Virus record (IMG/VR): IMGVR_UViG_2920970810_000002
Direction: 5' to 3' (one strand)
Source: an uncultured virus (IMG/VR IMGVR_UViG_2920970810_000002)
Taxonomy: Duplodnaviria > Heunggongvirae > Uroviricota > Caudoviricetes
Length of the DNA stretch: 20,000 nucleotides
The position numbers and the translations under genes were made by a program. Shown here piece after piece: positions 308 to 19,611 of the stretch. A model generated the notes under the pieces. It was not told where the DNA came from, ran no database searches, and was given only the letters and a program-made list of their open reading frames with translations. Numbering within the stretch: the stretch's first letter is position 1; each line of letters begins with the position of its first letter.

Positions 308-378
308 GGTGGTGGGTCCTTCTCGTCTGATGTCGGTGAGGGGATGGACGGCACGGTGCCTGCGCGCGCGAAGCCCCT

Positions 379-437: not shown

Positions 438-494
438 CTTTCACCCCCACAACTTCGAGAGCGCATCAACACGTTGAATCTTTTGGAGAAATCG

Positions 495-710: not shown

Positions 711-741
711 TAAGTCCGCGTAATCGGGATGAGCTGGCGCA

Positions 742-3848: not shown

Positions 3849-4255
3849 CAGAACGGCACATCCTCGTCTTCAGCAGCAATGGCGTGCATGGCGTCCTGGA
3901 AGCCGCCGACGGCGACCTCGATGAGCGTGAGCACCTGCGCCTCCGAGAGATCGGAGAAGCGCGTCTGCCAGCCGATCTCCTCCATGATTTCGGCGACCGG
4001 CTTCATGGCGGCGCGGATCGCCGCCTTCTCCTGTTCGGTGAGATCAACCATGGCCCAGCGCTCCCGCGCCAAGCGCGTCCAGAAGCCCTGGCAGGCCATC
4101 GAGCAGAACCAGACCGAGGGGCGCGGCCAGTTCGATGGCACCGGATCGAACCAGCCAAAGCCACGGGTGGGTCGCCGGCAGACAGCACAGAGCCTTCCAC
4201 GCGGATGCCAGAGCCGCCGCCGTTCCTCGGCCGTGGTAGGGGAAACAGAAGCCAT
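3848..4255 (-). CDS. DUF6511-like phage protein with an N-terminal Cys-rich finger
   Basis: CAVC...WFCSMAC putative zinc ligands; C-terminal MVDLTEQEKAAIRAAMKPVAEIMEEIGW...EDVPF resembles DUF6511; tightly packed with neighbours. Confidence 0.6.
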   Translation of the reverse strand: MASVSPTTAEERRRLWHPRGRLCAVCRRPTRGFGWFDPVPSNWPRPSVWFCSMACQGFWTRLARERWAMVDLTEQEKAAIRAAMKPVAEIMEEIGWQTRFSDLSEAQVLTLIEVAVGGFQDAMHAIAAEDEDVPF

Positions 4256-4258
4256 GGC

Positions 4259-5962
4259 TCATGCCGCCCTCCCGATGGCTGCTTCGGGCGCGGCATCGGC
4301 CGCGCCGAAGACGAGGGAGCGGATGGCGTCGCGGTTGAACCGGAAGGCCAGCAGCGCCGAGGCCTGGTAGCGGGTGAGCCCGAAGTCCTGCCGGGACTCC
4401 GGCGGCAGGAAGGCGAGCTGCCGGTCGGTGGGCGGCTGGTTCAGCCAGCGGCGGGTCTTGTGGGCGCTCTCGTCGCTCTCATGCTCGTTGAGCCAGTCGT
4501 CAGCCGCTGCCAGACAGACGGTGCGCTCGCCCACGGCCAACAGATGCGGCCGCTGCTTCTGGAGGCCTCCGATGCCGTACCACCGGCCGTTCAGGAAGAA
4601 GACACCGCCCCAGGCATTGAAGCCGTTGGCGATGAGCGCGGCATCGTCGCCGAAGAGGTCGCACCAACGGAAACTCGACCGCTTCAGCAGGTCGATCTCG
4701 GTCATCACGAAGTCACCGAGCGGCGTTGCTTCGCCGCCTTCGGGACGCTCCCAGACATGACCGCACAGCGGGCATTCGATAGTGGCGAGCGGCACGATGG
4801 CGCCGCAGTCCGGGCAATCCTTGGTCGGCGCCTCGCCGGAGGGTTCGCGACCGTCCAGGTCGACGTCCTGCTCCAGCGATCCGTGCATCAGGGTCGAGGT
4901 GCCGAAGTCGAGCACGATGCAGTCGGTCTTGATGATGCCGGGATGCTCCTCGGGCGAGACCGTGCGCAGACCGCGACCGACCATCTGGATCATGGTCGAC
5001 TTGTAGGAGCTCGGCCGCAGCAGCACGACGCAGCCCGTCGGCGGGTGATCCCACCCCTCGGTCAGCACCGCGACATTGACGACGACCCGCAGCTCTCCGG
5101 CGGCGTAGGCGTCGAGGGTCGTCTTGCGGTCGGTATCGGCCATGTCGCCTTGGATCAGCCCGGCGGCGACACCGGCCGCGTTGAAAGCGGCGGTCACGTT
5201 GCGCGCGTGGTCCACGGTCGAGCAGAACACCACCGTCTGGCGCTCGCCCGCCTTTTCCCGCCAGTGGCGGATGACGGCGTCCGTGACCGGCGACCGGTTC
5301 ATGATCGCGTCGACCTCGGCCATGTCGAAATCGTCGGCCGTGCGGCGCACCTTGGTGAGCTGGTCCTGGACGCCGACATCGATCACGAAGGTGCGCGGCG
5401 GCACGAGATGGCCGGACGCGATCAGCTCCCCGATCCGGATCTGATCGGCGACGTTGGAGAACACCGGGCGCAGACCGCGCTTGTCGCCCCGATTGGGCGT
5501 CGCCGTGACGCCGTAGACCCGGCACATGGCATTGCGCTGCAGCGCGGCGTCGATGATGCGCCTATAGCTGTCGGCTGCCGCGTGATGCGCCTCGTCGATC
5601 ACCAGGAGGTCGAGCGCGGGCAGCTGGCCGAGATTACCGGCGCGCGCCAGCGTCGGCACCATGGCGAAGGTGACCTGGCCAGCCCAGGATTTCTCCTTCG
5701 CGTCGACGACCGAGGTCGTGATGCGGGGATTCACCCGGCCGAACTTGCTGCGGTTCTGCGCGGTCAGCTCGTCGCGGTGGGCGAGCACGCATGCCTTGGC
5801 GCCCGTGCTCTTCGGGGTTTCGCCGACCATGCGACCGACGACCCCCGAAAGCATGATCGTCTTGCCGGCTCCGGTCGGGGCGACGCCGAGGGTGTTTCCG
5901 TGTTCGTCGAGCGCGCGGACGCTGCGCTCGACGAACTGCTTCTGGCGGGGACGCAGCAGCAT
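4259..5962 (-). CDS. SF2 DEAD/DEAH-box helicase (phage RadD/UvsW-like) with zinc ribbon
   Basis: Q-motif LRPRQ, APTGAGKT, DEAHH, TATPNR, LTEGWD, QMVGRGLR; CPDC-x10-CPLC ribbon. Start set at ATG 5962 (MLLRPRQ) with GAGG upstream. Confidence 0.92.
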   Translation of the reverse strand: MLLRPRQKQFVERSVRALDEHGNTLGVAPTGAGKTIMLSGVVGRMVGETPKSTGAKACVLAHRDELTAQNRSKFGRVNPRITTSVVDAKEKSWAGQVTFAMVPTLARAGNLGQLPALDLLVIDEAHHAAADSYRRIIDAALQRNAMCRVYGVTATPNRGDKRGLRPVFSNVADQIRIGELIASGHLVPPRTFVIDVGVQDQLTKVRRTADDFDMAEVDAIMNRSPVTDAVIRHWREKAGERQTVVFCSTVDHARNVTAAFNAAGVAAGLIQGDMADTDRKTTLDAYAAGELRVVVNVAVLTEGWDHPPTGCVVLLRPSSYKSTMIQMVGRGLRTVSPEEHPGIIKTDCIVLDFGTSTLMHGSLEQDVDLDGREPSGEAPTKDCPDCGAIVPLATIECPLCGHVWERPEGGEATPLGDFVMTEIDLLKRSSFRWCDLFGDDAALIANGFNAWGGVFFLNGRWYGIGGLQKQRPHLLAVGERTVCLAAADDWLNEHESDESAHKTRRWLNQPPTDRQLAFLPPESRQDFGLTRYQASALLAFRFNRDAIRSLVFGAADAAPEAAIGRAA

Positions 5963-5969
5963 GGCCGCC

Positions 5970-6566
5970 TCACTGCGCCCAGGACGGGCGCGTGCCCGCC
6001 GCCGGTGCTGAAGATTGGGGCATGGATGGCGGGGAAGGCTGAGCCTGCGGCTGCGCTGCCGCACCGGGCACGCCCATGAGGGCGGCATAATCCTTGTGAT
6101 CCGGCGTCACGGCCGCGCGGATCTCGTTCTTCTCCTCGCCGTTGGTGTCGGTGCCGATGTCGATCCGCGCCACGAACTCGAGCCCGTCGAGATCGGCAAA
6201 GCCGCTGATGCGACGCGCGGCCTGGGCCTGGGCGGACGTGTCCTTGTCCGCAATGCCGCGCGCGGAGTTGAGCATGCCGCGGATCAGGCTGCGGCCCATG
6301 TTCGCCCAGTCCGGCCCCTTGGGGCTGTACAGCCCGATCAGGGTGAAGATCTTGCGCCGTGCGTAGGGCCCTTCGAGAACCGTGAACTCGCCCGAGAGAT
6401 AGACCGAGCCGGTGGTCCCCCGCGTGGCGTATCCGCCGGTCCAGCCCTGCGCCGGATCGTCGAAACCGCCCGGACGGATCGTCAGGCGCACCTTGGCCAG
6501 CGTGCCCTTGGGGATGATGTTGCTGTTCTGCTTGGCGTCGTTGAAATCGTTCCAGGATCCAGTCAT
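5970..6566 (-). CDS. Putative phage single-stranded DNA-binding protein (DUF669-like)
   Basis: IPKGT...YLSGEFTVLEGPYARRKIF...KNEIRA pattern; Pro/Ala/Gln-rich tail ending RPSWAQ; follows the Sak4-like ATPase. Start ATG 6566 with GAGGAG RBS. Confidence 0.6.
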   Translation of the reverse strand: MTGSWNDFNDAKQNSNIIPKGTLAKVRLTIRPGGFDDPAQGWTGGYATRGTTGSVYLSGEFTVLEGPYARRKIFTLIGLYSPKGPDWANMGRSLIRGMLNSARGIADKDTSAQAQAARRISGFADLDGLEFVARIDIGTDTNGEEKNEIRAAVTPDHKDYAALMGVPGAAAQPQAQPSPPSMPQSSAPAAGTRPSWAQ

Positions 6567-6583
6567 GGCTGGGGTCTCCTCGT

Positions 6584-7471
6584 TCAGGCGTTTTCGGAAA
6601 TGGCAGGGGCGTCGGAGGTCGCAGCGGTCGCGGCCGGGGGCGCCCTGCGATAGGCCAGCCGTTCGCAAGCCGGCTTCACGGGGCCGCGGATCTTGGCCAT
6701 CAGGCGGCCGAGATGCGGCTCCTCGATCAGGTCGAGACGGCCGGATCGATCCTTCGCCGGGAAATTGCAGGGGTTGATCGTCTGGCAGACGAAGGCACGG
6801 TACGGCGCGCCGGCGTCGTCCTTGATCTCCGCCATCGTCAGGACTTCATCGACGATGCCCGGCAGCTCGAGGCCGGTCTTCGCGCCGTCGATCTGCGGCT
6901 GGAAGATGCGTCGATTGAAGTCGTCGAGCTTCTCGTCGAGGATCCCGACGAACCAGACGTTCTTCGCCCGCGTGTGCTGCAGATGCGTGAGCCACGCGAT
7001 CATCTCGCGGCCGTGCAGGCCATAGGCGCCGCGGACATCGGGCTTGCCGGTCTTCTCCGAGAATGCCTCGGGCTGCCCCTTGCACCATTGGAAGCAGAGC
7101 CGCCCGGCGACGGTGATCGAGTCGATGAAGACCGTGTGGTAGCGGTCGAGCGCAGCCGGATCGCCGAAGCGCTCGCACACCGCCGCGAAGTGGGCCTCGC
7201 TGTAGACCTGGTCGTCCCGCAGCGCCGGATTGGGGCCGCCGATGAAGACCGCGAAGTCGCGGCATTCAGCCCATGTGCGCGGCCGGACGCTGTCGCCGGA
7301 CCATCCCTCGATGGCGAGGTCGCCCGCCTCCAGGTCGATGAACAATGTAGTGGCGGGGTCGAGCGTCCAGAGAAGCGAGGTCTTGCCGATCCCGGACTTG
7401 CCGAAGATCGTGCCCTTGATGCCGCGCGGCTCGGCGAGCCGCTGGTCGGCGGAGATGATCGGGAGGGCCAT
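6584..7471 (-). CDS. AAA_24 / Sak4-like ATP-binding recombination protein
   Basis: Walker A GKSGIGKTS, IDLEAG, Walker B VFIDSIT, C-terminal AKDRSGRL; TGATG overlap with the upstream gene. Confidence 0.85.
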   Translation of the reverse strand: MALPIISADQRLAEPRGIKGTIFGKSGIGKTSLLWTLDPATTLFIDLEAGDLAIEGWSGDSVRPRTWAECRDFAVFIGGPNPALRDDQVYSEAHFAAVCERFGDPAALDRYHTVFIDSITVAGRLCFQWCKGQPEAFSEKTGKPDVRGAYGLHGREMIAWLTHLQHTRAKNVWFVGILDEKLDDFNRRIFQPQIDGAKTGLELPGIVDEVLTMAEIKDDAGAPYRAFVCQTINPCNFPAKDRSGRLDLIEEPHLGRLMAKIRGPVKPACERLAYRRAPPAATAATSDAPAISENA

Positions 7472-7767
7472 CACTTGCCTCCCTTCGTCGCGATCAGGGC
7501 GTCGATCGCGACGTCCGCGCCGAGCGCGCCGGCCTTGCGGGCCTCGTCGTGGAGGGTGCGCACCGCGTCGATTTCTCGGTAGAGGGCCGATGCCCGCTCG
7601 TTCAGACCGATGAGGGCAAATGCCAGGTCGTCGATCGAGGCCGTCCCGACCGGCTTGACGGTCTCGTCGCGACGCTCGCCAAGGGCCGGCACCCGGATGG
7701 TCTCGGGCAGCTTTTCCAGCCCGTAATGGTGCTCGCGGAGCACCGCGAGCTTCTTCGTGATGCTCAT
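7471..7767 (-). CDS. Hypothetical phage protein (98 aa)
   Basis: Overlaps both neighbours (ATGA and TGATG) within the operon; protein-like composition. Confidence 0.7.
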   Translation of the reverse strand: MSITKKLAVLREHHYGLEKLPETIRVPALGERRDETVKPVGTASIDDLAFALIGLNERASALYREIDAVRTLHDEARKAGALGADVAIDALIATKGGK

Positions 7768-8252
7768 GTCGTCACCTCGCCGTTCAGGGAAAGACGGAAG
7801 CTGGGCTTGCCGGTGCGGACGGTGCGCGCGTCCTCGAAGGCGGAGCGGATGTGGCTCGGCCAGGCCGCGAACTTGCGCTCGGGCACCTTGATCGCGACAT
7901 CGACGTATTCACCGGGGTCGTCGCCCTCGGCCCGGATGCGTTCGACGAGAGCGGCGAGCTTGTCCTGGTCCCAGTCGACGCGCTTCGGCAGATCGGCGAT
8001 CACGGTGACCGCGCCGTCATCGAAGCGGACCGTGCCGGTGTCTTTGCCGGCAGTCTGGCGCGCTGCGTGGGCACGATCGCCGTACTTGAGCGCGACGGCC
8101 CCATCGAGCCAGTCGCAGACGGTCTTGGCGCGGCGCAGGGCGTCGGCGGCATCGTCCTGCAAGAGGGCGAGTTGCTCGGCGGGCAGAGCGGCGATGTCGC
8201 CGACGGCCATGCGGCGGAGCTCATCGAGGGAGATACGGTTTGAGATCGTCAT
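7764..8252 (-). CDS. Hypothetical phage protein (about 162 aa), possibly Gp157/Gam-like
   Basis: Start ATG 8252 (MTISNRIS) after GAGGGGG; helical N-half, KRVDWDQ and VRTGKPSFRL C-terminal motifs; typical position before the Sak4/SSB genes. Confidence 0.7.
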   Translation of the reverse strand: MTISNRISLDELRRMAVGDIAALPAEQLALLQDDAADALRRAKTVCDWLDGAVALKYGDRAHAARQTAGKDTGTVRFDDGAVTVIADLPKRVDWDQDKLAALVERIRAEGDDPGEYVDVAIKVPERKFAAWPSHIRSAFEDARTVRTGKPSFRLSLNGEVTT

Positions 8253-8262
8253 CACCGCCCCC

Positions 8263-8472
8263 TCACGCCGCAGGCTTGCTTGGGTGGTCGGCGGTACTCG
8301 CGCGGATCTGCTCGCGCTCGTACTCCTCGACGTCTTCGAGGCGATACACGACGCGACCGCCGAGCTTGACGAAGCGCGGGCCTTCGCCCGTCCAGCGCCA
8401 GCGCTCAAGCGTGCGGTGGCTGATGTTCCAGCGCGCAGCCAGGTCGATCTGGTTGAGGTGTTTCGTAGCCAT
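8263..8472 (-). CDS. AlpA/excisionase-like winged-HTH DNA-binding protein (69 aa)
   Basis: MATKHLNQIDLAARWNISHRTLERWRWTGEGPRFVKLGGRVVYRLEDVEEYE matches the HTH_17/AlpA pattern; AAGGAG RBS before ATG 8472. Confidence 0.88.
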   Translation of the reverse strand: MATKHLNQIDLAARWNISHRTLERWRWTGEGPRFVKLGGRVVYRLEDVEEYEREQIRASTADHPSKPAA

Positions 8473-8526
8473 CTGATTCTCCTTCGGTTTTGGTCGAAAA
8501 CCTGCGGAGACGATGGACGAGGCCGG

Positions 8527-8567
8527 GGGAGGAGCCGGGGAGGAGCCAGGGAGGAGATACGGGAGGA
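8527..8567. promoter_or_regulatory. Four helically phased GGGAGGA heptamer repeats upstream of the replication operon
   Basis: GGGAGGA at 8527, 8538, 8549 and 8561 (periods 11, 11, 12 bp) in the intergenic region. Confidence 0.55.
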
Positions 8568-8584
8568 ATGCAGTCCGAGTGGCC

Positions 8585-8617
8585 AAAAACCAAAAAGGCC
8601 GCCCCGAAGGACGGCCT
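8585..8617 (-). terminator. Rho-independent terminator after the 315-aa gene
   Basis: - strand reads AGGCCGTCC-TTCG-GGGCGGCCT-TTTTGGTTTTT: 9-bp stem, UUCG loop, U tract, 21 nt past the stop. Confidence 0.85.
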
Positions 8618-8638
8618 AGTTTCGAGAGGCTTTCAGTG

Positions 8639-9583
8639 TCACACCTCGAGCCAGCAGTTGGATCCGCTCTCTCTGATCACCTCTTGCCAGGTGGGGTGGC
8701 CACCGAAGAGATCCTTCAATCGCTTCACCGATGGCCCGCACTCGGCTTCCTCCAGGATGCGCGCGACGGGCAGCACGGGGTCGCCGCCCAGCCAGGCTTC
8801 GGCGAGCATGGCCACGGCGATCTTCTGTTTACCGCCAGTGAACTCATGCCACGTGCCATGCACGATCAGCACGCCGCCATCGCCGGAGACCCAGACGGGC
8901 CCTTTGTGCGAAGGCCCCTTCAGCAGGCGTGCGGCCAGGACTTCCGGTGCGACAGCGAGGCCATCCTCGTGATCGACGACATCCGCCAGCGCGACGAACT
9001 CATGGCCCCTTATGAAGCTGAGGCGATGCCGATCCGGAGGATCGAGGAAAAGGACCACGCGCAGGCCTTCGGGGGGACGGCGCGTGACGAGTTGACGGAA
9101 CTCCTCGAAAACCGCCGGCGCCGTCAGACCTCGGGCGACCCAGATCCCAGCGCGCGCCCTGCGCTTCGGCAGCCGCGCCGTCCCAAAGTCCATCACCGCA
9201 CCATCAAGGGATGGCACGGGGTCATCACCGAGCGAGCAGTCGAGCCGGGCGGCCACTCGCCGGGCTGTGGCCGACATGTCCAGTGCATAGACCCGGCGAC
9301 GGGCAGTGAAGTGCTCATCCTGCCACGCCTCATTGCCGAGATGCCCATGACGCCCCGTGATCGGGTGAACGATGACGGACGTCGGGGTGTCGTCCAGATC
9401 GTCCTCGGCGACGACGGCCATGGTGCTGCCGCGCGGCACGAGCAGTCCCGCTTCGATCAGCTGCTTTCCGGCGCCGCGCTTGTGGGCGAGGGCCATGGCC
9501 GAGACCCGCGCGTCGCGGGTCCCGGCGATGGACGAGAGCAGCCGGCGGGCGGCGAGATCAATCCTCGAAGAGCTGCAGGTCAT
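8639..9583 (-). CDS. Hypothetical protein (about 314 aa) with a possible C-terminal winged-helix domain
   Basis: Long ORF overlapping the upstream gene end and followed by a terminator. The C-terminus (WHEFTGGKQKIAVAMLAEAW...VARILEEAEC...RLKDLF...NCWLEV) has an OmpR-like wHTH pattern. Start uncertain. Confidence 0.7.
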   Translation of the reverse strand: MTCSSSRIDLAARRLLSSIAGTRDARVSAMALAHKRGAGKQLIEAGLLVPRGSTMAVVAEDDLDDTPTSVIVHPITGRHGHLGNEAWQDEHFTARRRVYALDMSATARRVAARLDCSLGDDPVPSLDGAVMDFGTARLPKRRARAGIWVARGLTAPAVFEEFRQLVTRRPPEGLRVVLFLDPPDRHRLSFIRGHEFVALADVVDHEDGLAVAPEVLAARLLKGPSHKGPVWVSGDGGVLIVHGTWHEFTGGKQKIAVAMLAEAWLGGDPVLPVARILEEAECGPSVKRLKDLFGGHPTWQEVIRESGSNCWLEV

Positions 9584-10745
9584 CAACCAGGATCCCCCAG
9601 CGCCGAAGGTACTTCTCGCCGATCATCTGCTCGGCCGCGGTGCGATCCTTCAGATCGCAGCCATGCGGCCAGGTGATCGTCAGGGTCAGCGTGCGCCGCC
9701 TGTCACCTCCCGGGCGCCGGGCAAGCTTCACGGCGATCTTGGCCCGCGTGACGACGTACCCTTCGCTCAGGGGCGTGCGATCTCCGAACTTCTCTTCCGC
9801 CTTCGCCCATATCGTTTCGTCAGCGCGCGCGGGCTTCTCCAGCGTCACCCTGAAATCACTGTCGTCGATCGGCATCAGGCGCAGCTCGCGCACCTCGACA
9901 CCCTCGATCCCGTCCTCGGGGTCGACCGGGAAGTCGTACGGCGTCAGCAGCACGGAAAGGTCGTAGCACCGCAGGGGCAGGCGGTTCTCCCTGAACTCGA
10001 TGCCAAGGAGGTGCGTGACCGTCGCCTTCACGATCTCGCTCCGCGTCACCTTGTCGTTGGCGATCACCTCGATGCCACCTGTTGCGGGCTCATAGGTCAC
10101 CGCGGCCTCGAACACGGGACGATAAGCCTGCCGCACGAGGGATCCCTTATCGTCGAAGCGCAGCAGATCGTCGGGCCGTCCCTCGCGGTAGATCGTCACC
10201 TGCACGAGGTCGCATTCGTCGCCCTCATGGGTCGTCCTCACCCGGTCGAAGATGTCGACATGGGCATGGGCGGCGCCCGAGAACTCCTTGATCGCGGAGA
10301 CAAAGGCATGGCGGGCCGACGCGTCGCGTTGCACGACGCATCCGGCGTCGGTCATGTAGCCGGCCCACATCCGGCCGCGCCGGCGGTCCTCCGTGAAGCG
10401 AACCTCTTCGGCATGGCGGAACCGGTCCTGCGCGTTGAGGAACATCCAGAGCGACCGCGCGTGCGGGTTCGCGAGGCCGTCGAGGAAGGCGGGATCCTCG
10501 GCCACGCTGTAGATCGCGGCTTGCCCCGGCTCGTCGGACAGGGCATGGACGCGCTCAGCGTCATTGGAGATGCGGTCGCGCTGGACGCGGGACATCTTCT
10601 CGATGGCGCCGAGAAGCGGCCTGGACAGCGCGGCCTCCGGCACGCTCCAGTCGAACTCGGTGGGCAGGCCGATCTCCGGCCGGTCGAAGTATTCGCGCAG
10701 CGCCTCACCGGGCGTCTTGCGAAGGAAGGCGGAAAGAGCGGTCAT
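9558..10745 (-). CDS. Hypothetical protein (395 aa)
   Basis: AAAGGAG RBS before ATG 10745; globular composition; no motif I can name. Confidence 0.8.
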   Translation of the reverse strand: MTALSAFLRKTPGEALREYFDRPEIGLPTEFDWSVPEAALSRPLLGAIEKMSRVQRDRISNDAERVHALSDEPGQAAIYSVAEDPAFLDGLANPHARSLWMFLNAQDRFRHAEEVRFTEDRRRGRMWAGYMTDAGCVVQRDASARHAFVSAIKEFSGAAHAHVDIFDRVRTTHEGDECDLVQVTIYREGRPDDLLRFDDKGSLVRQAYRPVFEAAVTYEPATGGIEVIANDKVTRSEIVKATVTHLLGIEFRENRLPLRCYDLSVLLTPYDFPVDPEDGIEGVEVRELRLMPIDDSDFRVTLEKPARADETIWAKAEEKFGDRTPLSEGYVVTRAKIAVKLARRPGGDRRRTLTLTITWPHGCDLKDRTAAEQMIGEKYLRRWGILVDDLQLFED

Positions 10746-10861: not shown

Positions 10862-11578
10862 CTAGAAAAGAGAGGGTTGGCTGCTGGAGGAGACCAGTAG
10901 GCTCAGCTTCAAAAGGCGGACTCGCGCGGCATCCTCTGAGACCGCGAATCGGTCCATGACTGCACGGATAAGTGCGCAGCCATCCTCCGATGCCTGGTGT
11001 ATCGAGCCGTGCAGTCCTCGCGGCTCGCAATAATCCGAGACAAGGCGGCGCAGCTGAGTCGCGGGCATAAGGATCGCCCCGCTGACGTATCCAGCCTGCC
11101 ATTCCATCCAGTCGTACTGGGACGCGCTTATGATGCTGTCGCGCTTGCAGATGGCCTTGTTCTCGATGCTCTTGCGATCGAACAGATGCCGAGCGATGAA
11201 CTTTTCCGCCCAGAGATGGCGGTGGAAATACACATGCCCAAACTCGTGGGCGAGGGTCGTCCGCAGCCTATTCTCCCGTCGCGAGTCGTTGGCCAGTTTC
11301 TCCGAGATGGAGACCTTCGTTCTTCCTTCCGGAAAGAACTCGGTCATGCCTTCAACGTCGTCCCCGAAGTCCGATAGGTCGGCGTAAGCATCAAGTTCCG
11401 ATTCGTGCTGCTCAATCAGCACTTCGAGATCATCCGTCCGTACAGGAAAATCGACGGAGCCACGACGGCCGCGCAAGAGGGCGGAGACAATCCGCTCACA
11501 CTCGCGGTCAAGCTCTTGGGCGGAGTAGTGTGGCCTCTCCGCGAACCGTCCAGTCTTGTCGGGCACCATCCTAACCAA
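10862..11578 (-). CDS. ImmA/IrrE family metallo-endopeptidase (anti-repressor)
   Basis: RLRTTLAHEFGHVYFH (HExxH), EWQAGYVSGAILMP, C-terminal FAVSEDAARVRL HTH; TTG start with GAGG RBS. Confidence 0.9.
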   Translation of the reverse strand: MVRMVPDKTGRFAERPHYSAQELDRECERIVSALLRGRRGSVDFPVRTDDLEVLIEQHESELDAYADLSDFGDDVEGMTEFFPEGRTKVSISEKLANDSRRENRLRTTLAHEFGHVYFHRHLWAEKFIARHLFDRKSIENKAICKRDSIISASQYDWMEWQAGYVSGAILMPATQLRRLVSDYCEPRGLHGSIHQASEDGCALIRAVMDRFAVSEDAARVRLLKLSLLVSSSSQPSLF

Positions 11579-11588
11579 GGCGACTACC

Positions 11589-11915
11589 TCAATTCGTAAT
11601 GTTCTTTCTGAAATTTGCGAAGCTCTTCACGATCTTATCTCGATCCTTCGCCTTTTCTCGCACGTCATCAGGGATCTTTCCGGCCAGCACGAAAAGGTAG
11701 CCCTCGTCCTCATCGAGGATCGTTGCAAACTGCTTGATCAGGTGATCGGACGTGGGGCTCCGGCGGTCATGCTCGATGTCATTGAGGTACTGCGGCGAAA
11801 TCGGGCCGCCGCCTTCCTCCTTCTTCACAAGTGCCGCGAGCTCCTTCTGGCTGAGGCCCTTTGCCTTGCGCGCCTTGGAGATCGCCTGACCAAAGGTCAT
11901 GGATTGGGCTGACAT
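11589..11915 (-). CDS. XRE-family HTH repressor
   Basis: FGQAISKARKAKGLSQKELAA...ISPQYLNDIEHDRRSP; GAAAGGA RBS before ATG 11915; paired with ImmA/IrrE. Confidence 0.9.
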   Translation of the reverse strand: MSAQSMTFGQAISKARKAKGLSQKELAALVKKEEGGGPISPQYLNDIEHDRRSPTSDHLIKQFATILDEDEGYLFVLAGKIPDDVREKAKDRDKIVKSFANFRKNITN

Positions 11916-11942
11916 CGCGGCTATCCTTTCGACTCCAACCAA

Positions 11943-11962
11943 AATACGCTTGTTCGCGGATT
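11943..11962. promoter_or_regulatory. Palindromic operator copy 3 (AATACGC-TTGTTC-GCGGATT)
   Basis: 27 nt upstream of the XRE start, in the divergent intergenic region shared with the Hsp70 operon. Confidence 0.7.
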
Positions 11963-12069
11963 AGCGAAGTGTTACTCCTTATCCCGCAGTTGGATCAACC
12001 ATTATGCAGTGCAGCCGGCCCGGGCGTTTGCGCGACAAGGCCAGACTTGCCTGACTGGAGGGGGCAAAC

Positions 12070-13218
12070 ATGCCGACTGTCGGCTGGATCCGTGAGGGAG
12101 ATCTCGATGCCTTCTACGAAGGCACCGAGAGAGTTCCTGACCCAGCCCCTCACAAAGCGCGGACGTTTGCCTGCCCTTTCTGTCCGTCCATCCTCACGAC
12201 GCAGCTCGACCTCCACGACCATGTGTACGCCAGGCACCGCGTCGAACGGCCGGTCATCATGCTGCCAGGTGGCGAGCCAACCGGGAACGACGTGATCCGT
12301 GCACCACTTCATGAGTCGGACGTGATGCTTACGAATACGAGCTTCGCAAGAGTTAGTGTCGACGGGGCAATGTCGCGCCAGGTGTCCCCAAAAGAGCTGC
12401 CGGAAATCCTAGCCAAGACGAAACACGCCGAGGTGAAGTTAGAGCTGGTTAACGACGTACAGCGCAACGCCGTACCGGTAACCTCGAAGTACAAAATCTC
12501 GTTCCGAGTCGCCGACCTTGACGCTCTCAGGAGTGTGGAGAAGGCTTTCGTCGAAGTTCTCGTGTCTGCAGCGATCAGCCGTGAATCGATCGGCAGGTTT
12601 CTTGCGGACAAGAGAGCGCAGGGCGCGGGAAACGAGTATGCCTCCGGTTTGGCTAATTATTGCCTGGGAATCCTTATAAAAGAGCGACCTGACGGGGAGC
12701 GACTTACGACACCTCTCTCTCGTTATCGTGAGCATTATGGATCTGCGCTAGAAATTCTTAAAGATTTCGATCGGCCACTTGCTCACCTGATCGCGAGCAT
12801 CATTCGTTTCTCAATGAACGATTTTGAGAGAGGTCGTGAGCGAACTGGATATTGGGAGCTTGATTTAACGAATGAGTTACTCGTTGATCCAAGCTCGGAA
12901 AACTTGCCGCCGAGTCAGGGGCACTCCAAACGTCGTCCCGTCTGCCCGGTCGATCATGGTACCGGGAGAATGCTCGAGTTGGCGTCACATCTTGTCGGGC
13001 AGCCTCGGTGGAGTCCGATACTGGATGATGAGTGCCGGGCGCTCGCGCGCTCTGATGTTTTGGACGCTAGTGACCACCAGAAAGCCTTCGCCATATGGGC
13101 CGCAGTTGCTTGGCGACTGGGTGCGACGCAGAGCGCGTTGGAGCCACTCTCGCAAATAGCCGAGGTTTATCCGTTCAGCCGGTGGGCAAGAGAATACTTA
13201 GAGAAAGAACCGATGTGA
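12070..13218 (+). CDS. Hypothetical protein (382 aa) with an N-terminal C2H2 zinc finger and helical C-terminal region
   Basis: CPFC-PSILTTQLDLHD-H-VYAR-H = C-x2-C-x12-H-x4-H; GGAGG RBS; first gene of the coupled operon. Confidence 0.8.
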   Translation: MPTVGWIREGDLDAFYEGTERVPDPAPHKARTFACPFCPSILTTQLDLHDHVYARHRVERPVIMLPGGEPTGNDVIRAPLHESDVMLTNTSFARVSVDGAMSRQVSPKELPEILAKTKHAEVKLELVNDVQRNAVPVTSKYKISFRVADLDALRSVEKAFVEVLVSAAISRESIGRFLADKRAQGAGNEYASGLANYCLGILIKERPDGERLTTPLSRYREHYGSALEILKDFDRPLAHLIASIIRFSMNDFERGRERTGYWELDLTNELLVDPSSENLPPSQGHSKRRPVCPVDHGTGRMLELASHLVGQPRWSPILDDECRALARSDVLDASDHQKAFAIWAAVAWRLGATQSALEPLSQIAEVYPFSRWAREYLEKEPM

Positions 13219-14240
13219 CTGAAAACGAAGAGAGCACTGGGACTATGCCAGATAAGAAGCCCGCAGACCTCTCAGCAAAAGACGAGACGGCGCCCGCAGA
13301 AAGTACCGCGTCTGATGTCGAGTTTCCGCCGACGTTGTCCGGGTATTTTTCAGAACAGCGCGCCACCCCATCAGCGTTCTTCAAAATCCTTCGCAAAAAC
13401 GCTGTGAAGCACTTTCGATCCGACGATCGGGAGGCGGCTGGAAAGCTGATGATAGACCTTGATCCCGAGGGTGAGCGCCTTTGGGCTCTGATGTCACAGT
13501 CTACCTTACCCGATGCTATCGACACCTGGGTATGGGGGGCTGCTCAAGTGCGTCTCAAAGAGAAGCTTGGGGAAGCGTTCGATCCACAAGACCACGATGC
13601 CGCGCGGGTGCTCAAGGTAATCCTGACCTGCCTTTCACCTGGGCTTCGCTCCAATTCAAAGGACGAAAAGAAGAACGCCGAAACATGGCTACGCATCGGC
13701 ATTTGCTGGCTCGTGGAAAAGCGCGCTCTCAAATCCTGGCAAGTTGCCGAGGGACTGCGATCCATCTTCTTCCCTGAGTTGAAGTCAGCTGCGCGCCTGG
13801 CTCAAAGGGCCATTCAACGGGGCAAGATTAGCGAGCTACGTCTCGCAGTAGCGGTGGCTGGGCTCGGCGATCAGGTGGTCAGAGAAGCAGCCGAAGAGCG
13901 TGATCGTGAAAGGAGCACGGCCGTCGACCTACGTCACCGGCTGGATGATGCACGAAAAACTATCGAAAGACTCAGTTCCGAGTTGAAAGGCGCGCGGAAG
14001 ACGATTGCTGAGCATGAAGCAGCTATTTCCACGCTTGAGCAGACGCTCACGGCAGAGCGGCAGCACTGGGGTCATGATCTGACCGAGACAAAGGCCGAGC
14101 AGAAGGTCCTGCTGGGTGAACGCCTCGCGCCCTTGCTCGAAGATGCCATTGATGCACTTGAGATCGACCCGCCCGCACCGGGGACAGCGCTTCGACGAAC
14201 AAAATCTGCACTCGCTGTTATTAAAGAGGTAAACGAATGA
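13215..14240 (+). CDS. Hypothetical alpha-helical protein (341 aa) with a C-terminal coiled coil
   Basis: GTG at 13215 overlaps the upstream TGA (GTGA); acidic disordered N-terminus; heptad-rich LRHRLDDARKTIERLSSELKGARKTIAEHEAAISTLEQTL; stop overlaps the next ATG. Confidence 0.8.
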   Translation: MTENEESTGTMPDKKPADLSAKDETAPAESTASDVEFPPTLSGYFSEQRATPSAFFKILRKNAVKHFRSDDREAAGKLMIDLDPEGERLWALMSQSTLPDAIDTWVWGAAQVRLKEKLGEAFDPQDHDAARVLKVILTCLSPGLRSNSKDEKKNAETWLRIGICWLVEKRALKSWQVAEGLRSIFFPELKSAARLAQRAIQRGKISELRLAVAVAGLGDQVVREAAEERDRERSTAVDLRHRLDDARKTIERLSSELKGARKTIAEHEAAISTLEQTLTAERQHWGHDLTETKAEQKVLLGERLAPLLEDAIDALEIDPPAPGTALRRTKSALAVIKEVNE

Positions 14241-16171
14241 CTGAACCGATTTTCGGAATCGATTTCGGCACAACGAATAGCCTTGCGGCGATTGCGGTGG
14301 GCGGCAGAGCATTGGCACTGGTGGACCGGGTGACGCTGCGTCCGCACCCGTCTGTCATTTGGTACCGTGGCTCCGACATCGTTGTTGGTCGAGAAGCGCG
14401 ACAAAACATGGATATTACGGAAAGTGGTGCCCCTCCAGGTTTTGTTCGTTCTCCCAAGATGTCTCTCAGGCGTGATGGACCCATTTTTGTTGACGGCCGA
14501 CCCGTCGAACCTACCGATGCTGTCGCCGAGGTTCTCAAGCATCTGAAAACCGACGCTTCCCTGGCGCGCGGGAGCGCTCCCGGCCACGATCTCACGAGAG
14601 CAGTTTTCACTATACCGGTTGATTTTGGAGGGCCTGAGCGCCGCGCCCTCCGCGAGGCGGCGCGAAAAGCCGGAATTGGCGTTGTGCAGTTTGTCCACGA
14701 GCCCGTAGCGGCCCTGTACGCTTATCTCCGCTCGCAGCCCGACCTTGGCCGTGAGCTGGCACGCCTGGAAGGAAAAACAATCCTCGTTTTCGATTGGGGC
14801 GGTGGCACGCTCGACCTCACACTATGTCGCATCTCCGGCGGCGCGATCATGCAGGTTAGAAATCTTGGCGACAATGAAGTGGGTGGTGACAAGTTTGACG
14901 AGCGTCTCAGAAACCACCTGCGCGAAAAGCACGCTGCCACACATGGCCTCGATGACATTTCAGCGCTCGAGCAACCCGGCATGGCAGCAAAGCTGCTACA
15001 TCAGTGCGAAATCCTGAAGATACATTTGTCCGATCCGAAGGCCGACACGGAAGACGTTATCGTTCGAAACTACTTGAAGGTCGATGGAGCCGGAAGGAAC
15101 CTCCTCGGATCCGTAAGCCGTTCGGAACTCGACGACCTCAGCGCGGGTATTGTCGCGCGCGGGCTCGCTCGAATCGATGAGATACTTGAGCAAACGCAAC
15201 TGACCTACCAAGATATCGAACTCTGCCTCGCTACCGGAGGCATGGTGAACATGCCTGCGATACGTGACGGTCTCACAGAACGGTTCGTGGGCAGGGTGCC
15301 GCGGCTCGACAACGGCGATCGGATCATCGCCGAAGGCGCTGCCTGGATCGCAAACGATGGTCTGAGGCTGAAACTCTCAAAACCAATCGAAATTCTTGTT
15401 GCGGATACATCCGGCCGGGGAACGTACCACTCCCTCGTCGATGCCGGTTGGACCCTTCCGATCGAGAACGAAACGCAGAATGTTGCTAACACGCGCCTGT
15501 TTTGCGTCGACCCGCGGGAAGGTGTCGCGGTGGTCGAGGTGGCGAAACCGGTGAAGCTCGGCAAAACATCACCGAACGATCCCCGACATTCGCTTTGCGT
15601 CGCCAGGGTCGAAGTGGACCGGAATGCGCAGCCCCTTATTGAACGAATTGAATGCAATTTGCAGATCGACCACGATTACATCGCCCGGGTGACACTTAGG
15701 TCGACAGGTCGAGGGGCTGAGTCTTCCGCAGAATTCCATGACCTCGAATTCGGACTCTCGCTGAGAGAGGGGGGCTCCCAAGACCCCGAGGCAGACGATA
15801 CTGACAACGTTGTCTCGTCCGGTTCGCTAGGAAAGATCAAATCACTTGCCAGCAGCAATCTATTTCAAAGAACTAATGTCGCACGTTTTGATGAGCGATC
15901 CCATGCGCATGGCGACCTCTGGAAGTACGTGCCCGGGGATTTGGTCGCGACATGGAAGTCAAACTATTTTGATACCAGGAACAGAGAGGCGACTGAAAGA
16001 CAATTGGAGGAGCGCAACTTCTATGTTCCTTGTGCTCGATGCAGAAGGACAATCTCTCAGATCAAGGCGGAAGGTCCAGTTGATGGGTGTCGCGGTTCGT
16101 GCGGCTTAGATCCGAGCAAAGGACGAGCAGATTCGTTCCAGCAATCTTCCCCACCCTATCGGGAGGTTTAA
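14237..16171 (+). CDS. Atypical Hsp70-family protein (not housekeeping DnaK)
   Basis: GIDFGTTNS, SPKMSL, TIPVDF..ERRAL, HEPVAA, VFDWGGGTLD, GGDKFD, LATGGMVNMPAI, IAEGAA are all Hsp70 ATPase-domain motifs; the C-terminal half is divergent and ends in a Cys cluster. GAGG RBS and ATGA overlap. Confidence 0.92.
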   Translation: MTEPIFGIDFGTTNSLAAIAVGGRALALVDRVTLRPHPSVIWYRGSDIVVGREARQNMDITESGAPPGFVRSPKMSLRRDGPIFVDGRPVEPTDAVAEVLKHLKTDASLARGSAPGHDLTRAVFTIPVDFGGPERRALREAARKAGIGVVQFVHEPVAALYAYLRSQPDLGRELARLEGKTILVFDWGGGTLDLTLCRISGGAIMQVRNLGDNEVGGDKFDERLRNHLREKHAATHGLDDISALEQPGMAAKLLHQCEILKIHLSDPKADTEDVIVRNYLKVDGAGRNLLGSVSRSELDDLSAGIVARGLARIDEILEQTQLTYQDIELCLATGGMVNMPAIRDGLTERFVGRVPRLDNGDRIIAEGAAWIANDGLRLKLSKPIEILVADTSGRGTYHSLVDAGWTLPIENETQNVANTRLFCVDPREGVAVVEVAKPVKLGKTSPNDPRHSLCVARVEVDRNAQPLIERIECNLQIDHDYIARVTLRSTGRGAESSAEFHDLEFGLSLREGGSQDPEADDTDNVVSSGSLGKIKSLASSNLFQRTNVARFDERSHAHGDLWKYVPGDLVATWKSNYFDTRNREATERQLEERNFYVPCARCRRTISQIKAEGPVDGCRGSCGLDPSKGRADSFQQSSPPYREV

Positions 16172-16189: not shown

Positions 16190-16217
16190 GAATCATTCGC
16201 GCCGGCTCGAATGATTC
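16190..16217. repeat. Perfect 10-bp inverted repeat just after the Hsp70 stop
   Basis: GAATCATTCG (16190-16199), 8-nt spacer, CGAATGATTC (16208-16217); no U tract on either strand. Confidence 0.6.
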
Positions 16218-16307: not shown

Positions 16308-16532
16308 ATGCAAGACGCCCGATCCGGTCCAAACCCTCTTTTGCCCGCCCGTCTGTCGGCGGACGAACGCCTCGATGAACTCGCGCAGATTCTTGCCGCG
16401 GGGCTGAGGCGTATCCTGCCGGAACAGTCCAGTTCTTTATCTGCACCTGGCGAAGACAGTTCATTCGACATTCTCGCCCTCAAACGCCGTGTTGGTCGTC
16501 GCAAACCGAGCAACCGAGTTGGAGGGCAATGA
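16308..16532 (+). CDS. Small hypothetical protein preceding DUF2924
   Basis: NPLLPARLSADERLDELAQILAAGLRRI resembles the small ORF I associate with DUF2924-recombinase modules; stop overlaps the next start. Confidence 0.6.
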   Translation: MQDARSGPNPLLPARLSADERLDELAQILAAGLRRILPEQSSSLSAPGEDSSFDILALKRRVGRRKPSNRVGGQ

Positions 16533-17041
16533 TGCCAGGGACAAAGAGAAAGACTGACGCCGCACCATGGCAACAGGGCAACCGCGATGCGGCGCACGCG
16601 GGCGTGGTCACGCAGCTTGCAGCGCTGAAGCGAATGGCGGTGGTCGAGCTGAAGGCGAAGTGGGAAAGCCTCTTCGGTACACCCGCTCCGAACAACAGCC
16701 GCAGTTACCTCGAACTGAGGCTCAGCTACCGGGTCCAGGAACTGACCCTCGGCGGCCTGACCCGCGAGACGCGGCGGACGCTGGACTTGCTGGCTGACGA
16801 AATCGAGGGCCGGGTCGGGCGCAAGACGATCATCGCGGATCCCCGCAACCCCGTGGTCGGAACCCGCCTCGTGCGTGAATGGGACGGGGTGGAGCACACC
16901 GTCACTGTGATGAAGGACGGCTTCGACTGGCAGGGGCGCAAGTTCAAGTCGCTCTCGGCGGTGGCGCGGGCGATCACCGGCACGCAGTGGAACGGCTACC
17001 GCTTCTTCGGCTTGCGCGAGGCGCGGAGGGACGACCGATGA
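16529..17041 (+). CDS. DUF2924 domain protein
   Basis: ELKAKWESLFG, LELRLSYRVQE..LGGL, GTRLVREWDGVEHTVTV, SLSAVARAITGTQWNGYRFFGL; GGAGG RBS; directly upstream of the recombinase. Confidence 0.9.
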   Translation: MMPGTKRKTDAAPWQQGNRDAAHAGVVTQLAALKRMAVVELKAKWESLFGTPAPNNSRSYLELRLSYRVQELTLGGLTRETRRTLDLLADEIEGRVGRKTIIADPRNPVVGTRLVREWDGVEHTVTVMKDGFDWQGRKFKSLSAVARAITGTQWNGYRFFGLREARRDDR

Positions 17042-18375
17042 GCCGTCATCAGGAAGCCGTCGCGGTCGTTCCGCGCCGCCAGCGCTGCGCCATCTATACC
17101 CGCAAGTCGAGCGAGGAAGGGCTCGACATGGAGTTCAACAGCCTCGACGCCCAGCGCGAGGCTTGCGAGGCCTTTGTGACGAGCCAGAAGGCGGAAGGCT
17201 GGGCCACCATTCGCGAACGCTACGATGACGGCGGCTTCTCCGGTGGCACGCTGGAGCGCCCCGGCTTGAAGCGTCTCATTCAGGACGTCGAAGCCGGTCT
17301 GATCGATGTGATCGTGGTCTACAAGATCGACCGGCTGTCGCGCTCGCTGATGGATTTCGCCAAGCTGGTCGAGATCTTCGACCGCAATCAGGTGACCTTC
17401 GTTTCGATCACGCAGTCGTTCAACACCACGACCTCGATGGGCCGCCTGACCCTGAACATCCTCCTCAGCTTCGCACAGTTCGAGCGGGAGGTGATCGGCG
17501 AGCGCATCCGCGACAAGGTCGCGGCATCCCGCAAGCGCGGCATGTGGATGGGCGGTCACGTCCCGCTGGGCTACGACGTGCGCGACCGCAAGCTGGTCGT
17601 CAACGAAGCGGAAGCCGCGACGGTCCGGATGATCTTCGAGCGCTTCGTCGCCATCGGCTCCGCCACGACGCTGGCGAAAGCGCTCGCGGCCGAGGGCGTT
17701 CTGAACAAGCGCGGCAAGCCGATCGACAAGGGCTTCCTCTACAAACTGATCAACAACCGGGTCTACCTCGGAGAAGCCGTGCACAAGGGCACGGCCTATC
17801 CCGGCGAGCACAAGGCCATCATCGATCAGGCCCTCTGGGACAAGGTTCACAGCATCCTGCAGGAGAGCCCGCGCCTGCGGGCGAAGAACACCCGCCGCCA
17901 GACGCCGGCCCTGCTGAAAGGGATCATCTTCACCGAGACGGGCACGGCGATGACGCCGACCGCGACGAAGAAGGGCACGCGCCTCTACCGCTACTACGCG
18001 TCGATGGACCTGATCCGAAACCGCCCCACCGGCGAGACTTGCGGCCCGCTGCGCTTGCCCGCCGGCATGGTCGAGGACGCCGTCGTCGGCGAAATCCGCC
18101 GCATGATCCGCGCGCCCGAGATCGCGGCGCGGACGATCAAGGCCCTTCGCGAAGAGAGCCCGACGGTCGATGAGAAGGCGGTCGTCCAGGCGCTCGGCGA
18201 ATTCGACCAGCTCTGGGCGGCGCTCTATCCGGCGGAGCAGACCCGCATCGTCCAGCTTCTGGTCGAGCGGGTGACCGTCGGCGAAGACGGCATCGCCGTC
18301 GATTTGCGCCATGAGGGGCTGGGCTCGGTCCTGCGGGACATGATGGCCACCCGCCAGGCGGAGGCCTGCGCATGA
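17038..18375 (+). CDS. Large serine recombinase (resolvase + recombinase domains)
   Basis: CAIYTRKSSEE (catalytic Ser), SLDAQRE, DGGFSGGTLERPGL, VYKIDRLSRS, PLGY, NRVYLG; ATG 17038 overlaps the DUF2924 stop and has a GGAGG RBS. Confidence 0.95.
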   Translation: MSRHQEAVAVVPRRQRCAIYTRKSSEEGLDMEFNSLDAQREACEAFVTSQKAEGWATIRERYDDGGFSGGTLERPGLKRLIQDVEAGLIDVIVVYKIDRLSRSLMDFAKLVEIFDRNQVTFVSITQSFNTTTSMGRLTLNILLSFAQFEREVIGERIRDKVAASRKRGMWMGGHVPLGYDVRDRKLVVNEAEAATVRMIFERFVAIGSATTLAKALAAEGVLNKRGKPIDKGFLYKLINNRVYLGEAVHKGTAYPGEHKAIIDQALWDKVHSILQESPRLRAKNTRRQTPALLKGIIFTETGTAMTPTATKKGTRLYRYYASMDLIRNRPTGETCGPLRLPAGMVEDAVVGEIRRMIRAPEIAARTIKALREESPTVDEKAVVQALGEFDQLWAALYPAEQTRIVQLLVERVTVGEDGIAVDLRHEGLGSVLRDMMATRQAEACA

Positions 18376-18755
18376 CCGACTCGACGAACACCATCCGCGT
18401 CGTCATCCCCCTGACGATCCGCAAACGCAATGGGCGGCCGAAGATCCTCCCGCCCGACGAGGTGACAGTCCGGGACGGCCGGTCGCAAGACCCTCATGTG
18501 CTGCGCGCCATCGCCCGCGCTTGGAACTGGCGGCGGCAGCTGGAATCCGGTGCCGCTTCCACCATTCAGGATATCGCCGCGGCCGAGAAGGTCTCCGACC
18601 GGTTCGTGAGCCGCATGATGCGGCTCGCCTATCTGTCGCCGGAGGTGCTCGAACACCTCGTCATCAGGCGCGTACCACCGGCGCTTTCGCTGAACGACCT
18701 CGTTGCAGTTGCCGATCGGCCGTGGGCAGAGCAGATGGACATGGTTTTTGACTGA
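18372..18755 (+). CDS. Recombinase-associated HTH-like accessory protein (127 aa)
   Basis: IRKRNGRPKI, LRAIARAWNWRRQLESG, IQDIAAAEKVSDRFVSRMMRLAYLSPEV (HTH-like), WAEQ; ATGA overlap with the recombinase. Confidence 0.75.
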   Translation: MTDSTNTIRVVIPLTIRKRNGRPKILPPDEVTVRDGRSQDPHVLRAIARAWNWRRQLESGAASTIQDIAAAEKVSDRFVSRMMRLAYLSPEVLEHLVIRRVPPALSLNDLVAVADRPWAEQMDMVFD

Positions 18756-18774: not shown

Positions 18775-19611
18775 TCAATGGAAGCCTGCCACGAATGCTG
18801 TGGCCGTGAGTGTGACGTGGGCATCGAGCGGCGGATACAGTTCGAAGGCCTTCGGCTCACGCGAGAAGTTCCAAAGCCGGAACAAGCACCATTCGGATCG
18901 GCGCTCGTCTGCTACCGCGAGCTCGTTGCGGGTGATGTGGAAGGGCGTCCGTTCCCAGCCGTTCGTCGTCTTCACCTCGATCAAGCGCGCCTGGCCATCT
19001 GGCGCGAAACTCGCGATGTCATAGCCTGCGCCATCCCCGTCCTCCTCAGACACCCAACGGACCTTTCGCGCCAAGTCATCACGTCCCGCCGACCGTAGCG
19101 ATGCCCACTCATGCGCCAGAACGCGCTCCTCGCCGGCGCGACCGAGGGCGCGGTTGCGCTCGTCCCGGCCTGCCACATCGAACTTGCCTGCGATGTGCAG
19201 CATCTGCTCCAGCTCTAGCGGTGGCGGCTGGTTCGACAGCGTCGGCGGCGGGCCGATCCAGATCGGTGCGGATTCTTCAAGACCCGTCGCCGGGCGCGAG
19301 TCTGGCAGACGGCCGAGCCACGCGGGGTTGATTGCCAACCACCGTACCACCGCGTCGACGAGCGACATTTGGAAATTGAACGCAGGCTTGTAGCCGGGGA
19401 TCCAGTCCTCGCCGAGCCCCTTCAGAACCGCGCTGATGTTCTGGTGCTTGAACTCGATCGATCCCTCCGAACGGCCGTTCAGCAACGGCAGGAGCGTACG
19501 GCGATGCTCTGCCTTGCTGTACGGGCGTCCGAAGACGTCGTCGGCCAGCATCGCGAAGTAATCCGCGACGATCAGATCGTTCTCCTCATCGGTCCAAGGC
19601 TCGCTCGACAT
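18775..19611 (-). CDS. DUF3883 (NO VEIN C-terminal) PD-(D/E)XK nuclease-like protein
   Basis: LGRAGEERV, DGDGAGYDIASF, RLIEVKTT, FHITRNE motifs; N-terminal WTDEE...RSEGSIEFKHQNIS domain. Confidence 0.85.
   Translation of the reverse strand: MSSEPWTDEENDLIVADYFAMLADDVFGRPYSKAEHRRTLLPLLNGRSEGSIEFKHQNISAVLKGLGEDWIPGYKPAFNFQMSLVDAVVRWLAINPAWLGRLPDSRPATGLEESAPIWIGPPPTLSNQPPPLELEQMLHIAGKFDVAGRDERNRALGRAGEERVLAHEWASLRSAGRDDLARKVRWVSEEDGDGAGYDIASFAPDGQARLIEVKTTNGWERTPFHITRNELAVADERRSEWCLFRLWNFSREPKAFELYPPLDAHVTLTATAFVAGFH

Follow-up and report, generated by a model that had tools for sequence, protein, structure and literature searches.

An undescribed four-module Hsp70 operon carried as prophage cargo, a candidate anti-phage system

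What does an Hsp70 gene do in a prophage, when no cochaperone gene is found nearby? This question is raised by a stretch of 20,000 nucleotides (the window, taken at its full length) from an uncultured virus of Caudoviricetes (IMG/VR IMGVR_UViG_2920970810_000002). A prediction made from the sequence alone had proposed that three genes, here called A, B and C, form one dedicated module around an atypical Hsp70. The operon is real, conserved and undescribed, and it consists of four modules. Its genomic association with defence genes is strong, and it is likely that A-B-C(D) works as an anti-phage (anti-mobile-element) system complete in itself, which the prophage carries as cargo.

A conserved operon of four modules

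The open reading frames (ORFs) of the three genes were found on the + strand at 12070-13218, 13215-14240 and 14237-16171, as the original prediction had it. They are joined by 4-nt overlaps, which can be read in the sequence as GTGA at 13215 and ATGA at 14237. The grouping into three proteins was correct in that A, B and C are real, but a Cys4 domain in C, here called D, had been overlooked. The modules are four in number because D is fused to C in most loci and constitutes its own downstream gene in 10. The features of the operon are as follows, including those taken from AlphaFold2 (AF2) models.

12070..13218, + strand: gene A, 382 aa, proposed sensor/adaptor (AF2 model, fold matches, conservation)
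13215..14240, + strand: gene B, 341 aa (alignments; coiled-coil family matches only)
14237..16171, + strand: whole gene C, 644 aa, Hsp70 and D (ORF, AF2 model)
14237..15760, + strand: Hsp70 part of gene C, with the full nucleotide-binding domain (NBD), the hydrophobic linker and the beta part of the substrate-binding domain (SBD-beta), without the alpha-helical lid (Pfam HSP70 2.4e-50; AF2)
15845..16108, + strand: module D, Cys4 domain (C residues 537-624), proposed built-in client or effector (alignment of relatives)
16190..16217, + strand: inverted repeat directly 3' of the stop of C, weak candidate for a terminator hairpin (14-nt arms, 93% complementary; region folding z = -1.72)

The GC content of the operon is 0.563, against 0.672 in the left backbone, 0.658 in the integration module and 0.654 in the genome. 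At third codon positions (GC3), its genes show 0.58-0.60 and the flanking genes 0.85-0.89. The lower GC content had been noticed before from two hand-counted lines, and the recount gave the identical values of 32/60 and 43/60. GGAGG is present at 12057-12061, ahead of the start of gene A, and no sigma-70 promoter consensus was found within 11850-12150. Contigs of three RNA libraries overlap parts of A, B and C. They reach into the flanking backbone too, and therefore operon transcription is not shown by these contigs.

The trio stays together, and the order A-B-C is kept both in loci seeded from A and in those seeded from C. The C-seeded set represents the best 80 of 545 metagenome matches and 5 of 6 viral matches; A and B are present in all 47 of these loci with at least 2.7 kb upstream (44 by rule and 3 by inspection). 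In A-seeded loci from named genomes with at least 4.3 kb, B and C follow in order in 20 of 23, and the three exceptions are broken copies. Four A-seeded loci were too short and were left out, and L115 was excluded as it contains an unrelated Hsp70-like gene (28% identity). The identity of C in C-seeded loci reaches down to ~35%, and these loci are spread over at least three phyla. The pairwise identities of A, B and C co-vary (rho 0.66-0.74), which is descriptive only, as the loci are related. Mean pairwise identity is 46% for C, the most conserved gene, 29% for A and 24% for the tail of B.

The recorded hosts include many Alphaproteobacteria, Pseudomonas, Halomonas, Colwellia, Desulfatiglans and plasmids of Paenarthrobacter. 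Hosts that can be grown in culture, with compact copies of 4 kb, are found in Pseudomonas, Halomonas and the alphaproteobacteria. A locus from a Sphingomonadales metagenome-assembled genome (MAG; L004) encodes, within its first 4.4 kb, proteins 100% identical to A, B and C. Among 400 other Pseudomonadota genomes, one has the operon, with the trio intact. In both Paenarthrobacter plasmids, IS3 interrupts gene A. One of these plasmid copies (L028) is followed by a 446-aa gene of no known family at 17232-18572 (+), which begins 2 bases past the Hsp70 stop and may be an extra component of the plasmid copy. Frameshifts in A, B or C are observed in L014, L021, L024, L006 and L018. These may be sequencing errors and not decay; several of these loci share the kind of MAG assembly.

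The absence of J-domain and GrpE genes nearby, pointed out in the original prediction, was borne out in the window, where profiles of 21 J-domains and 30 GrpE proteins match nothing. With the same profiles, the ORFs of 115 related loci and the window gave one J-domain gene and no GrpE. The only J-domain gene lies ~9.6 kb away from a broken operon copy (L020). The host's own dnaK, grpE and a J-domain gene are on a different contig (C35) from the operon, which agrees with a dedicated module rather than a general chaperone locus.

Defence neighbourhoods and the cargo slot

The trio lies near defence genes. After removal of duplicates (95% identity of C), 88 loci remained, and up to three genes per side were collected from them, which gave 274 genes and 228 representatives. 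As a control, 90 genes were called in the same manner in five regions of the host chromosome. Matches to PADLOC at E 1e-10 are found for 74 of the 228 representatives and for 4 of the 90 host genes (Fisher p 1.4e-8), a difference weakened by the chromosomal rather than mobile nature of the control genes, by the relatedness of the loci and by generic helicases or transporters among the PADLOC matches. When counted by locus, 74 loci have any neighbour, and a PADLOC-matching neighbour is present in 46 of them.

The position of the operon says more: some copies are located inside defence operons. The operon is inserted between BREX pglX and pglZ in seven loci (L065, L066, L067, L069, L070, L078 and L079) and between hmaA and hmaB in L095. 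In four further loci it is co-oriented directly behind type III restriction-modification (R-M) or DUF1156-methyltransferase (MTase) systems. On the tree of C, which is from a quick search, the BREX-embedded copies are scattered over four or more separate positions, and the number of insertions is provisional. The pglX-pglZ interval is described as accepting unrelated insertions without effect on modification (PMC9009780, excerpt). McrB-like genes flank 5 of the 88 de-duplicated loci (L003, L009, L011, L012 and L038), and none is found in the window. In the close relatives L003, L009, L010, L011, L012 and L031, a McrB-like gene with an EVE domain is placed directly behind C and is followed by a McrC gene wherever the contig extends far enough.

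The window corresponds to the right part of a lambda-like prophage. Genes for terminase, portal, S49 protease, capsid and tail tube are in the 20 kb leftward, and the replication genes are at 742-7474. The position between the repressor and the integration module was read correctly before; the repressor and its neighbouring peptidase are prophage backbone and outside the operon. The flanking features, which include a helix-turn-helix (HTH) gene, are as follows.

10862..11578, - strand: HExxH metallopeptidase (ImmA/IrrE/CapP-like), 238 aa, backbone gene (Pfam Peptidase_M78 5.9e-8; PADLOC capP 7.9e-15)
11589..11942, - strand: HTH repressor (CapH/ImmR-like), backbone gene, divergent from the operon (Pfam HTH_3 1.7e-9; PADLOC capH 5.3e-6)
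16529..18755, + strand: integration module with DUF2924, a large serine recombinase and a recombinase-associated small gene, context outside the system

The HTH and HExxH peptidase genes (10862-11942), upstream of the operon on the opposite strand, show the CapH/CapP layout (bioRxiv 10.1101/2022.04.27.489752 and 10.64898/2026.05.16.725639, both excerpts). The peptidase matches only positions 25-153 of 242 of the capP profile, with no GAF match in the Pfam and PADLOC scans. It is equally possible that the pair is ImmR/ImmA.

Sister prophages were collected as 26 viral loci with the backbone gene at 9558-10745, and 13 of them were examined. Five of these have the same HTH/peptidase pair and readable cargo, and none has the trio. 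The cargo of L206 is PD-T7-1 (2.5e-82) with Lit-like genes, that of L192 is described below, and the other three of the five have unknown genes. Sister prophages thus pair the same regulators with other cargo, which makes the slot a hotspot for cargo and assigns the regulators to the prophage. This agrees with the general view, cited in the original prediction, of sites beside repressors and integrases as hotspots.

Several other genes were recorded. The slot cargo of L192, at 798-8709 (-), comprises a metallophosphoesterase, an AAA_27 protein, a UvrD-like helicase and a small gene, and is a possible undescribed nuclease-ATPase defence operon. The same slot contains a partial gene of 455 aa in L188, at 3-1367 (-), and a gene of 917 aa in L196, at 848-3598 (-), both without Pfam or PADLOC match. 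The sister prophages L207, L208 and L210 have no cargo in the slot, and in place of the window peptidase they carry one with a longer and better match to CapP (2e-69 in L208; 2.9e-59 in L210). Just past the recombinase module of the window, at 18775-19611 (-), there is a NOV_C/DUF3883 protein (PADLOC PDC-S36 6.3e-128), a candidate for a second defence gene on the element. Two backbone genes of 395 and 315 aa at 8639-10745 (-) have no match in Pfam, NCBIfam or PADLOC. The 395-aa gene matches PHROG 37634, is 80-96% conserved in most of the 26 viral loci, and occurs in 6 of 400 further genomes from this class. L121 has two toxin-antitoxin-like pairs (AbrB/PIN-like and HigBA-like, by eye) at 1130-1764 and 5446-6029, within the prophage structural region.

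The four modules

Gene C belongs to the Hsp70 family, as its NBD is actin-like and the phosphate and catalytic motifs are intact. The pTM of its AF2 model is 0.80. The canonical cut-offs are not reached, either for DnaK (TIGR02350, 156 bits against 822) or for HscA (133 against 709), and the identity to the host DnaK is 26%. Among 50 diverse C members, D9, T12, T13, K74, P127, R135, E155, D186 and D193 are conserved in all 50, T191 is conserved in 49, and position 480 is D or N in all 50. P127, R135 and D/N480 correspond to P143, R151 and D481 of DnaK, residues with roles in its allosteric path (roles and numbering from PMC12406271, excerpt). Going by these residues, the ATPase site is intact, the NBD-SBD allosteric residues are present, and gene C is probably an allosteric Hsp70.

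The lid is absent from gene C. In its place, the model shows the Cys4 domain behind a disordered linker, and in 10 loci the protein ends directly past SBD-beta. The J-docking side is also changed: the positions matching N170, D393 and what we take to be R167 of DnaK are H, L and Q/T, respectively. The lid-released "S" state of DnaK is described as lacking the D393-N170 and R151-D481 contacts (PMC12406271, excerpt). The best structural match of the model is 7KRU, a peptide-fused, lid-released "stimulating" DnaK (Z 42.1, root-mean-square deviation 3.3, 476 aligned). At the end of this alignment, model residue 541 (the start of D) is placed against residue 552, the last of the chain, where the substrate peptide is presumably C-terminal. 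The substrate-loop residues C423, D425 and P426 (C423-x-D425-P426) are invariant in all 50 members, as expected for one fixed ligand. The alignment end and the invariant loop together hint that D may fill the cleft as a built-in client.

Module D is an 85-residue domain with the motif RxN..PG[DE]..Q..E..Y.PCxxC..C, tied to the Hsp70 by a disordered linker in the window copy. Gene C is present in 108 loci: 85 of them have D fused to it, 10 have D as a gene of its own downstream, and 13 have lost D at contig ends or by frameshifts; L075, which looks like a frameshift, was left out of the count of separate genes. No significant match was found in Pfam, PHROG, PDB or the ESM Atlas, and the best Atlas value, 0.87, is under the useful level. 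The D profile matches only eL37 zinc ribbons among PDB sequences, at E 0.058 or worse. R..Q-x-x-E is the motif of ADP-ribosyltransferases. This assignment was tried for D and dropped, as Q and E sit on a predicted helix.

Gene A contains, in order, a conserved N-terminal peptide, a single C2H2 zinc finger (residues ~32-61), an Ig-like beta-sandwich (58-147) and TPR-like helical repeats (148-382). Its AF2 model has a pLDDT of 87.5 and a pTM of 0.79. The fold comparison (VIA) gave generic and weak TPR and Ig matches (best Z 8.3 across 86 residues), and Foldseek gave nothing at E 0.001 in PDB and BFVD. C35, C38, H51, P61, N250 and D335 are invariant in 109 sequences. At E up to 1e-30, the gene A profile collects 342 clusters (50% identity), and a few of them are proteins with zinc-finger repeats. 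Gene A was not found in the GenBank phage collection, and one distant copy has no DNA match among E. coli genomes. Searches of A, B and D in Pfam, NCBIfam, PADLOC and PHROGs gave zinc-finger and coiled-coil matches only.

Gene B is the fastest-evolving of the genes of the operon. Its N-terminus is poorly conserved and its helical domain variable; a long coiled coil (~215-300) comes next, and the helical hairpin at the C-terminus is conserved. No hydrophobic segment of membrane length was found in 59 members, and the best value in the ESM Atlas, 0.80, is under the useful level. Judged by eye, the tail is like the long helix and bundle of GrpE. The 106-column tail gave an hhalign probability of 34% over 90 columns against 30 GrpE sequences (score 25.9, against 17-19 for reversed controls). 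None of the 59 members matches Pfam GrpE, and the C-terminal beta domain of GrpE is missing, as gene B stops just past the hairpin in all aligned members. A GrpE ancestry of gene B is possible, as a weak hint only. A J-domain protein was ruled out for both gene B and D (hhalign probability 0.2% or less); the HPD string occurs in 2 of 59 gene B sequences, wherever in the protein.

Proposed function and relation to known systems

We suggest that gene C would act as an ATP-driven clamp run by private cofactors. At rest, the cleft for substrates would be occupied by D, its own partner, a step whose chance is clearly below even. Gene A, via its Ig-like and TPR-like surfaces, might recognise a phage protein or phage-caused damage; here the chances are evenly balanced. 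Gene B probably forms a dimeric coiled coil and has a GrpE-like hairpin; that it drives the exchange of nucleotide is conceivable but doubtful. The exchange would release or expose D (or let B assemble), and the growth of the infected cell would stop (abortive infection). Taken as a whole, this guard or switch model falls a little short of an even chance. Its fullest version would be a stand-alone immunity in which the Hsp70 ATPase is the central switch, with J-independent private cofactors (a degenerate GrpE and a sensor built of TPR, Ig and zinc-finger parts) and with the zinc-binding effector D in its own cleft; this version is rather unlikely.

Several results weigh against the guard or switch model or against the defence role itself. 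No PADLOC-matching neighbour is present in 28 of the 74 loci. The placement of D in the cleft depends on where one alignment terminates, and it is weak because model confidence is low there (residues 531-550 have block means of 43 and 56); the top structural Z-scores of C are also tied within 1. For gene B, hhalign against 11 GrpE sequences gave a probability of 1%, the hairpin alone against 30 GrpE sequences gave 0.3%, and the HMM scores were 2.7 bits against 1.9 for reversed sequences. No membrane segment and no recognisable toxic activity (no nuclease or NADase in library scans) were found in any module. As D is fused in most copies, its release would be limited.

In another explanation, defence would work without a toxin. 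Gene A would pass a captured structural or replication protein of the phage to the lidless Hsp70, which would bind or remodel it and block virion assembly; D would be a structural substitute for the lid and B a scaffold. Such a direct trap fits the co-occurrence and the defence context equally and needs no effector, none being recognised in any module. The lidless DnaK-like domain in EACC1 modules is proposed as a sensor of misfolded proteins or phage stress (PMC12642450, excerpt), which also favours it. Fast-changing phage clients are, however, less compatible than a fixed self-ligand with the invariant substrate loop and the strongly conserved motif of D, and C is the most conserved gene of the operon. 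The direct trap is the main rival of the switch model, though itself rather unlikely. A specialised chaperone set that helps the host under stress and gathers in mobile islands for non-phage reasons is improbable. It would account for the fact that C is a true Hsp70 whose ATPase and allosteric residues are intact, and for the loci without a PADLOC neighbour, and DnaK derivatives have been proposed as cochaperones of DnaK (PMC13580251, excerpt). Against it stand the lack of nearby J-protein and GrpE genes (other chaperone families were outside that scan), the repeated insertion within BREX and Hma operons, and the rare, patchy distribution with broken copies.

The copies within BREX type 1 operons (seven) and Hma (one), together with others adjoining type I/III R-M, McrBC and DUF1156-MTase systems, could also mean that the set folds, guards or backs up these complexes and is inert alone. 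This is quite improbable, as the partner systems vary between loci, the window copy is alone in a prophage slot, and the pglX-pglZ interval takes unrelated insertions with modification unaffected (PMC9009780, excerpt). The lowest probability is given to an addiction module that stabilises its element, with phage defence as a side effect at most. In its favour are the tight translational coupling, the location on mobile elements and D, which is small, conserved and a candidate toxin, but no known toxin fold is present, and the operon is enriched within defence operons, not beside replicons. Toxin-antitoxin-chaperone (TAC) systems are the precedent for such a module. In TAC, a chaperone restrains the system until a phage protein tips the balance. 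TAC uses SecB and a HigBA-type pair and has no ATPase. The proposed switch would likewise be chaperone-guarded, but no homology to TAC was found in any module here. These last three explanations (stress cargo, helper and addiction) fit the insertions inside defence operons, or the stand-alone window copy, less well than the switch or the trap.

No system of PADLOC-DB 2.0.0 is matched by A, B or C, in line with the earlier statement that no named defence system fits. A and C have no match at E 0.1, and B has only weak coiled-coil matches (PbeC, 0.007; LmuB, 0.06). No description of the operon was found in the literature covered, with supplementary tables and most subscription journals outside the coverage and with post-2023 systems compared via papers only; large prediction screens could list these families. 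Hsp70/DnaK wording is absent from the main text of a 2026 BREX survey (PMC12839542) and of a domain-centred screen (PMC13069673), and nothing bacterial is found under it in PMC8195603.

Three described systems with an Hsp70 are comparable. CnuD of type III CoCoNuT (CnuD/CnuCD) has McrB/McrC homologues, a helicase and HEPN effectors as partners, and its ATPase motifs are degenerate (PMC11090510, excerpt); the operon core here contains no McrB/C or nuclease, and its catalytic residues are conserved in 49-50 of 50 members. EACC1-protease modules also have a lidless Hsp70, proposed as a defence sensor or switch, in company with a caspase-like protease and a pore-forming effector (PMC12642450, excerpt). 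Their DnaK is ~50% identical to canonical DnaK, against 26% to the host DnaK for gene C, and no protease or EACC1 match was found for A, B and C in Pfam, NCBIfam and PADLOC. GAP1-N2 GTPase-centred conflict systems share with the operon an Hsp70 and a TPR-bearing beta-sandwich protein in a conflict neighbourhood (PMC7159879, excerpt). They depend on paired GTPases as well as on GrpE and DnaJ domains that are recognisable as such, and the operon here has none of these. Because their defining genes are absent, the operon is placed outside these three systems.

With housekeeping DnaK-DnaJ-GrpE and HscA/HscC, gene C shares the NBD, the linker, the SBD-beta fold, and the catalytic and R151/D481-type allosteric residues. 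It differs from them in the absence of the lid, in the presence of D instead, in the changed J-docking positions, in the lack of a J-protein or GrpE gene, and in being mobile and rare. DnaK itself is reported to repress DancE (bioRxiv 10.64898/2026.10.06.757031, excerpt), and the proposed switch would be chaperone-guarded in a similar manner.

In bacterial defence, Hsp70 has so far been seen as an addition to systems with known effectors (CoCoNuT, EACC1-protease and GAP1-N2) or as a host chaperone used by a sensor (DnaK/DancE). In the operon here, Hsp70 is the core and the usual effectors are absent. If the operon protects, either a new effector (D or B) or a new phage block would be expected, in addition to an Hsp70 that operates without a J-protein. 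The bacterial derivatives of DnaK are called largely unexplored in a 2026 review (PMC13580251, excerpt), and protection by the operon would give a function to one branch of them.

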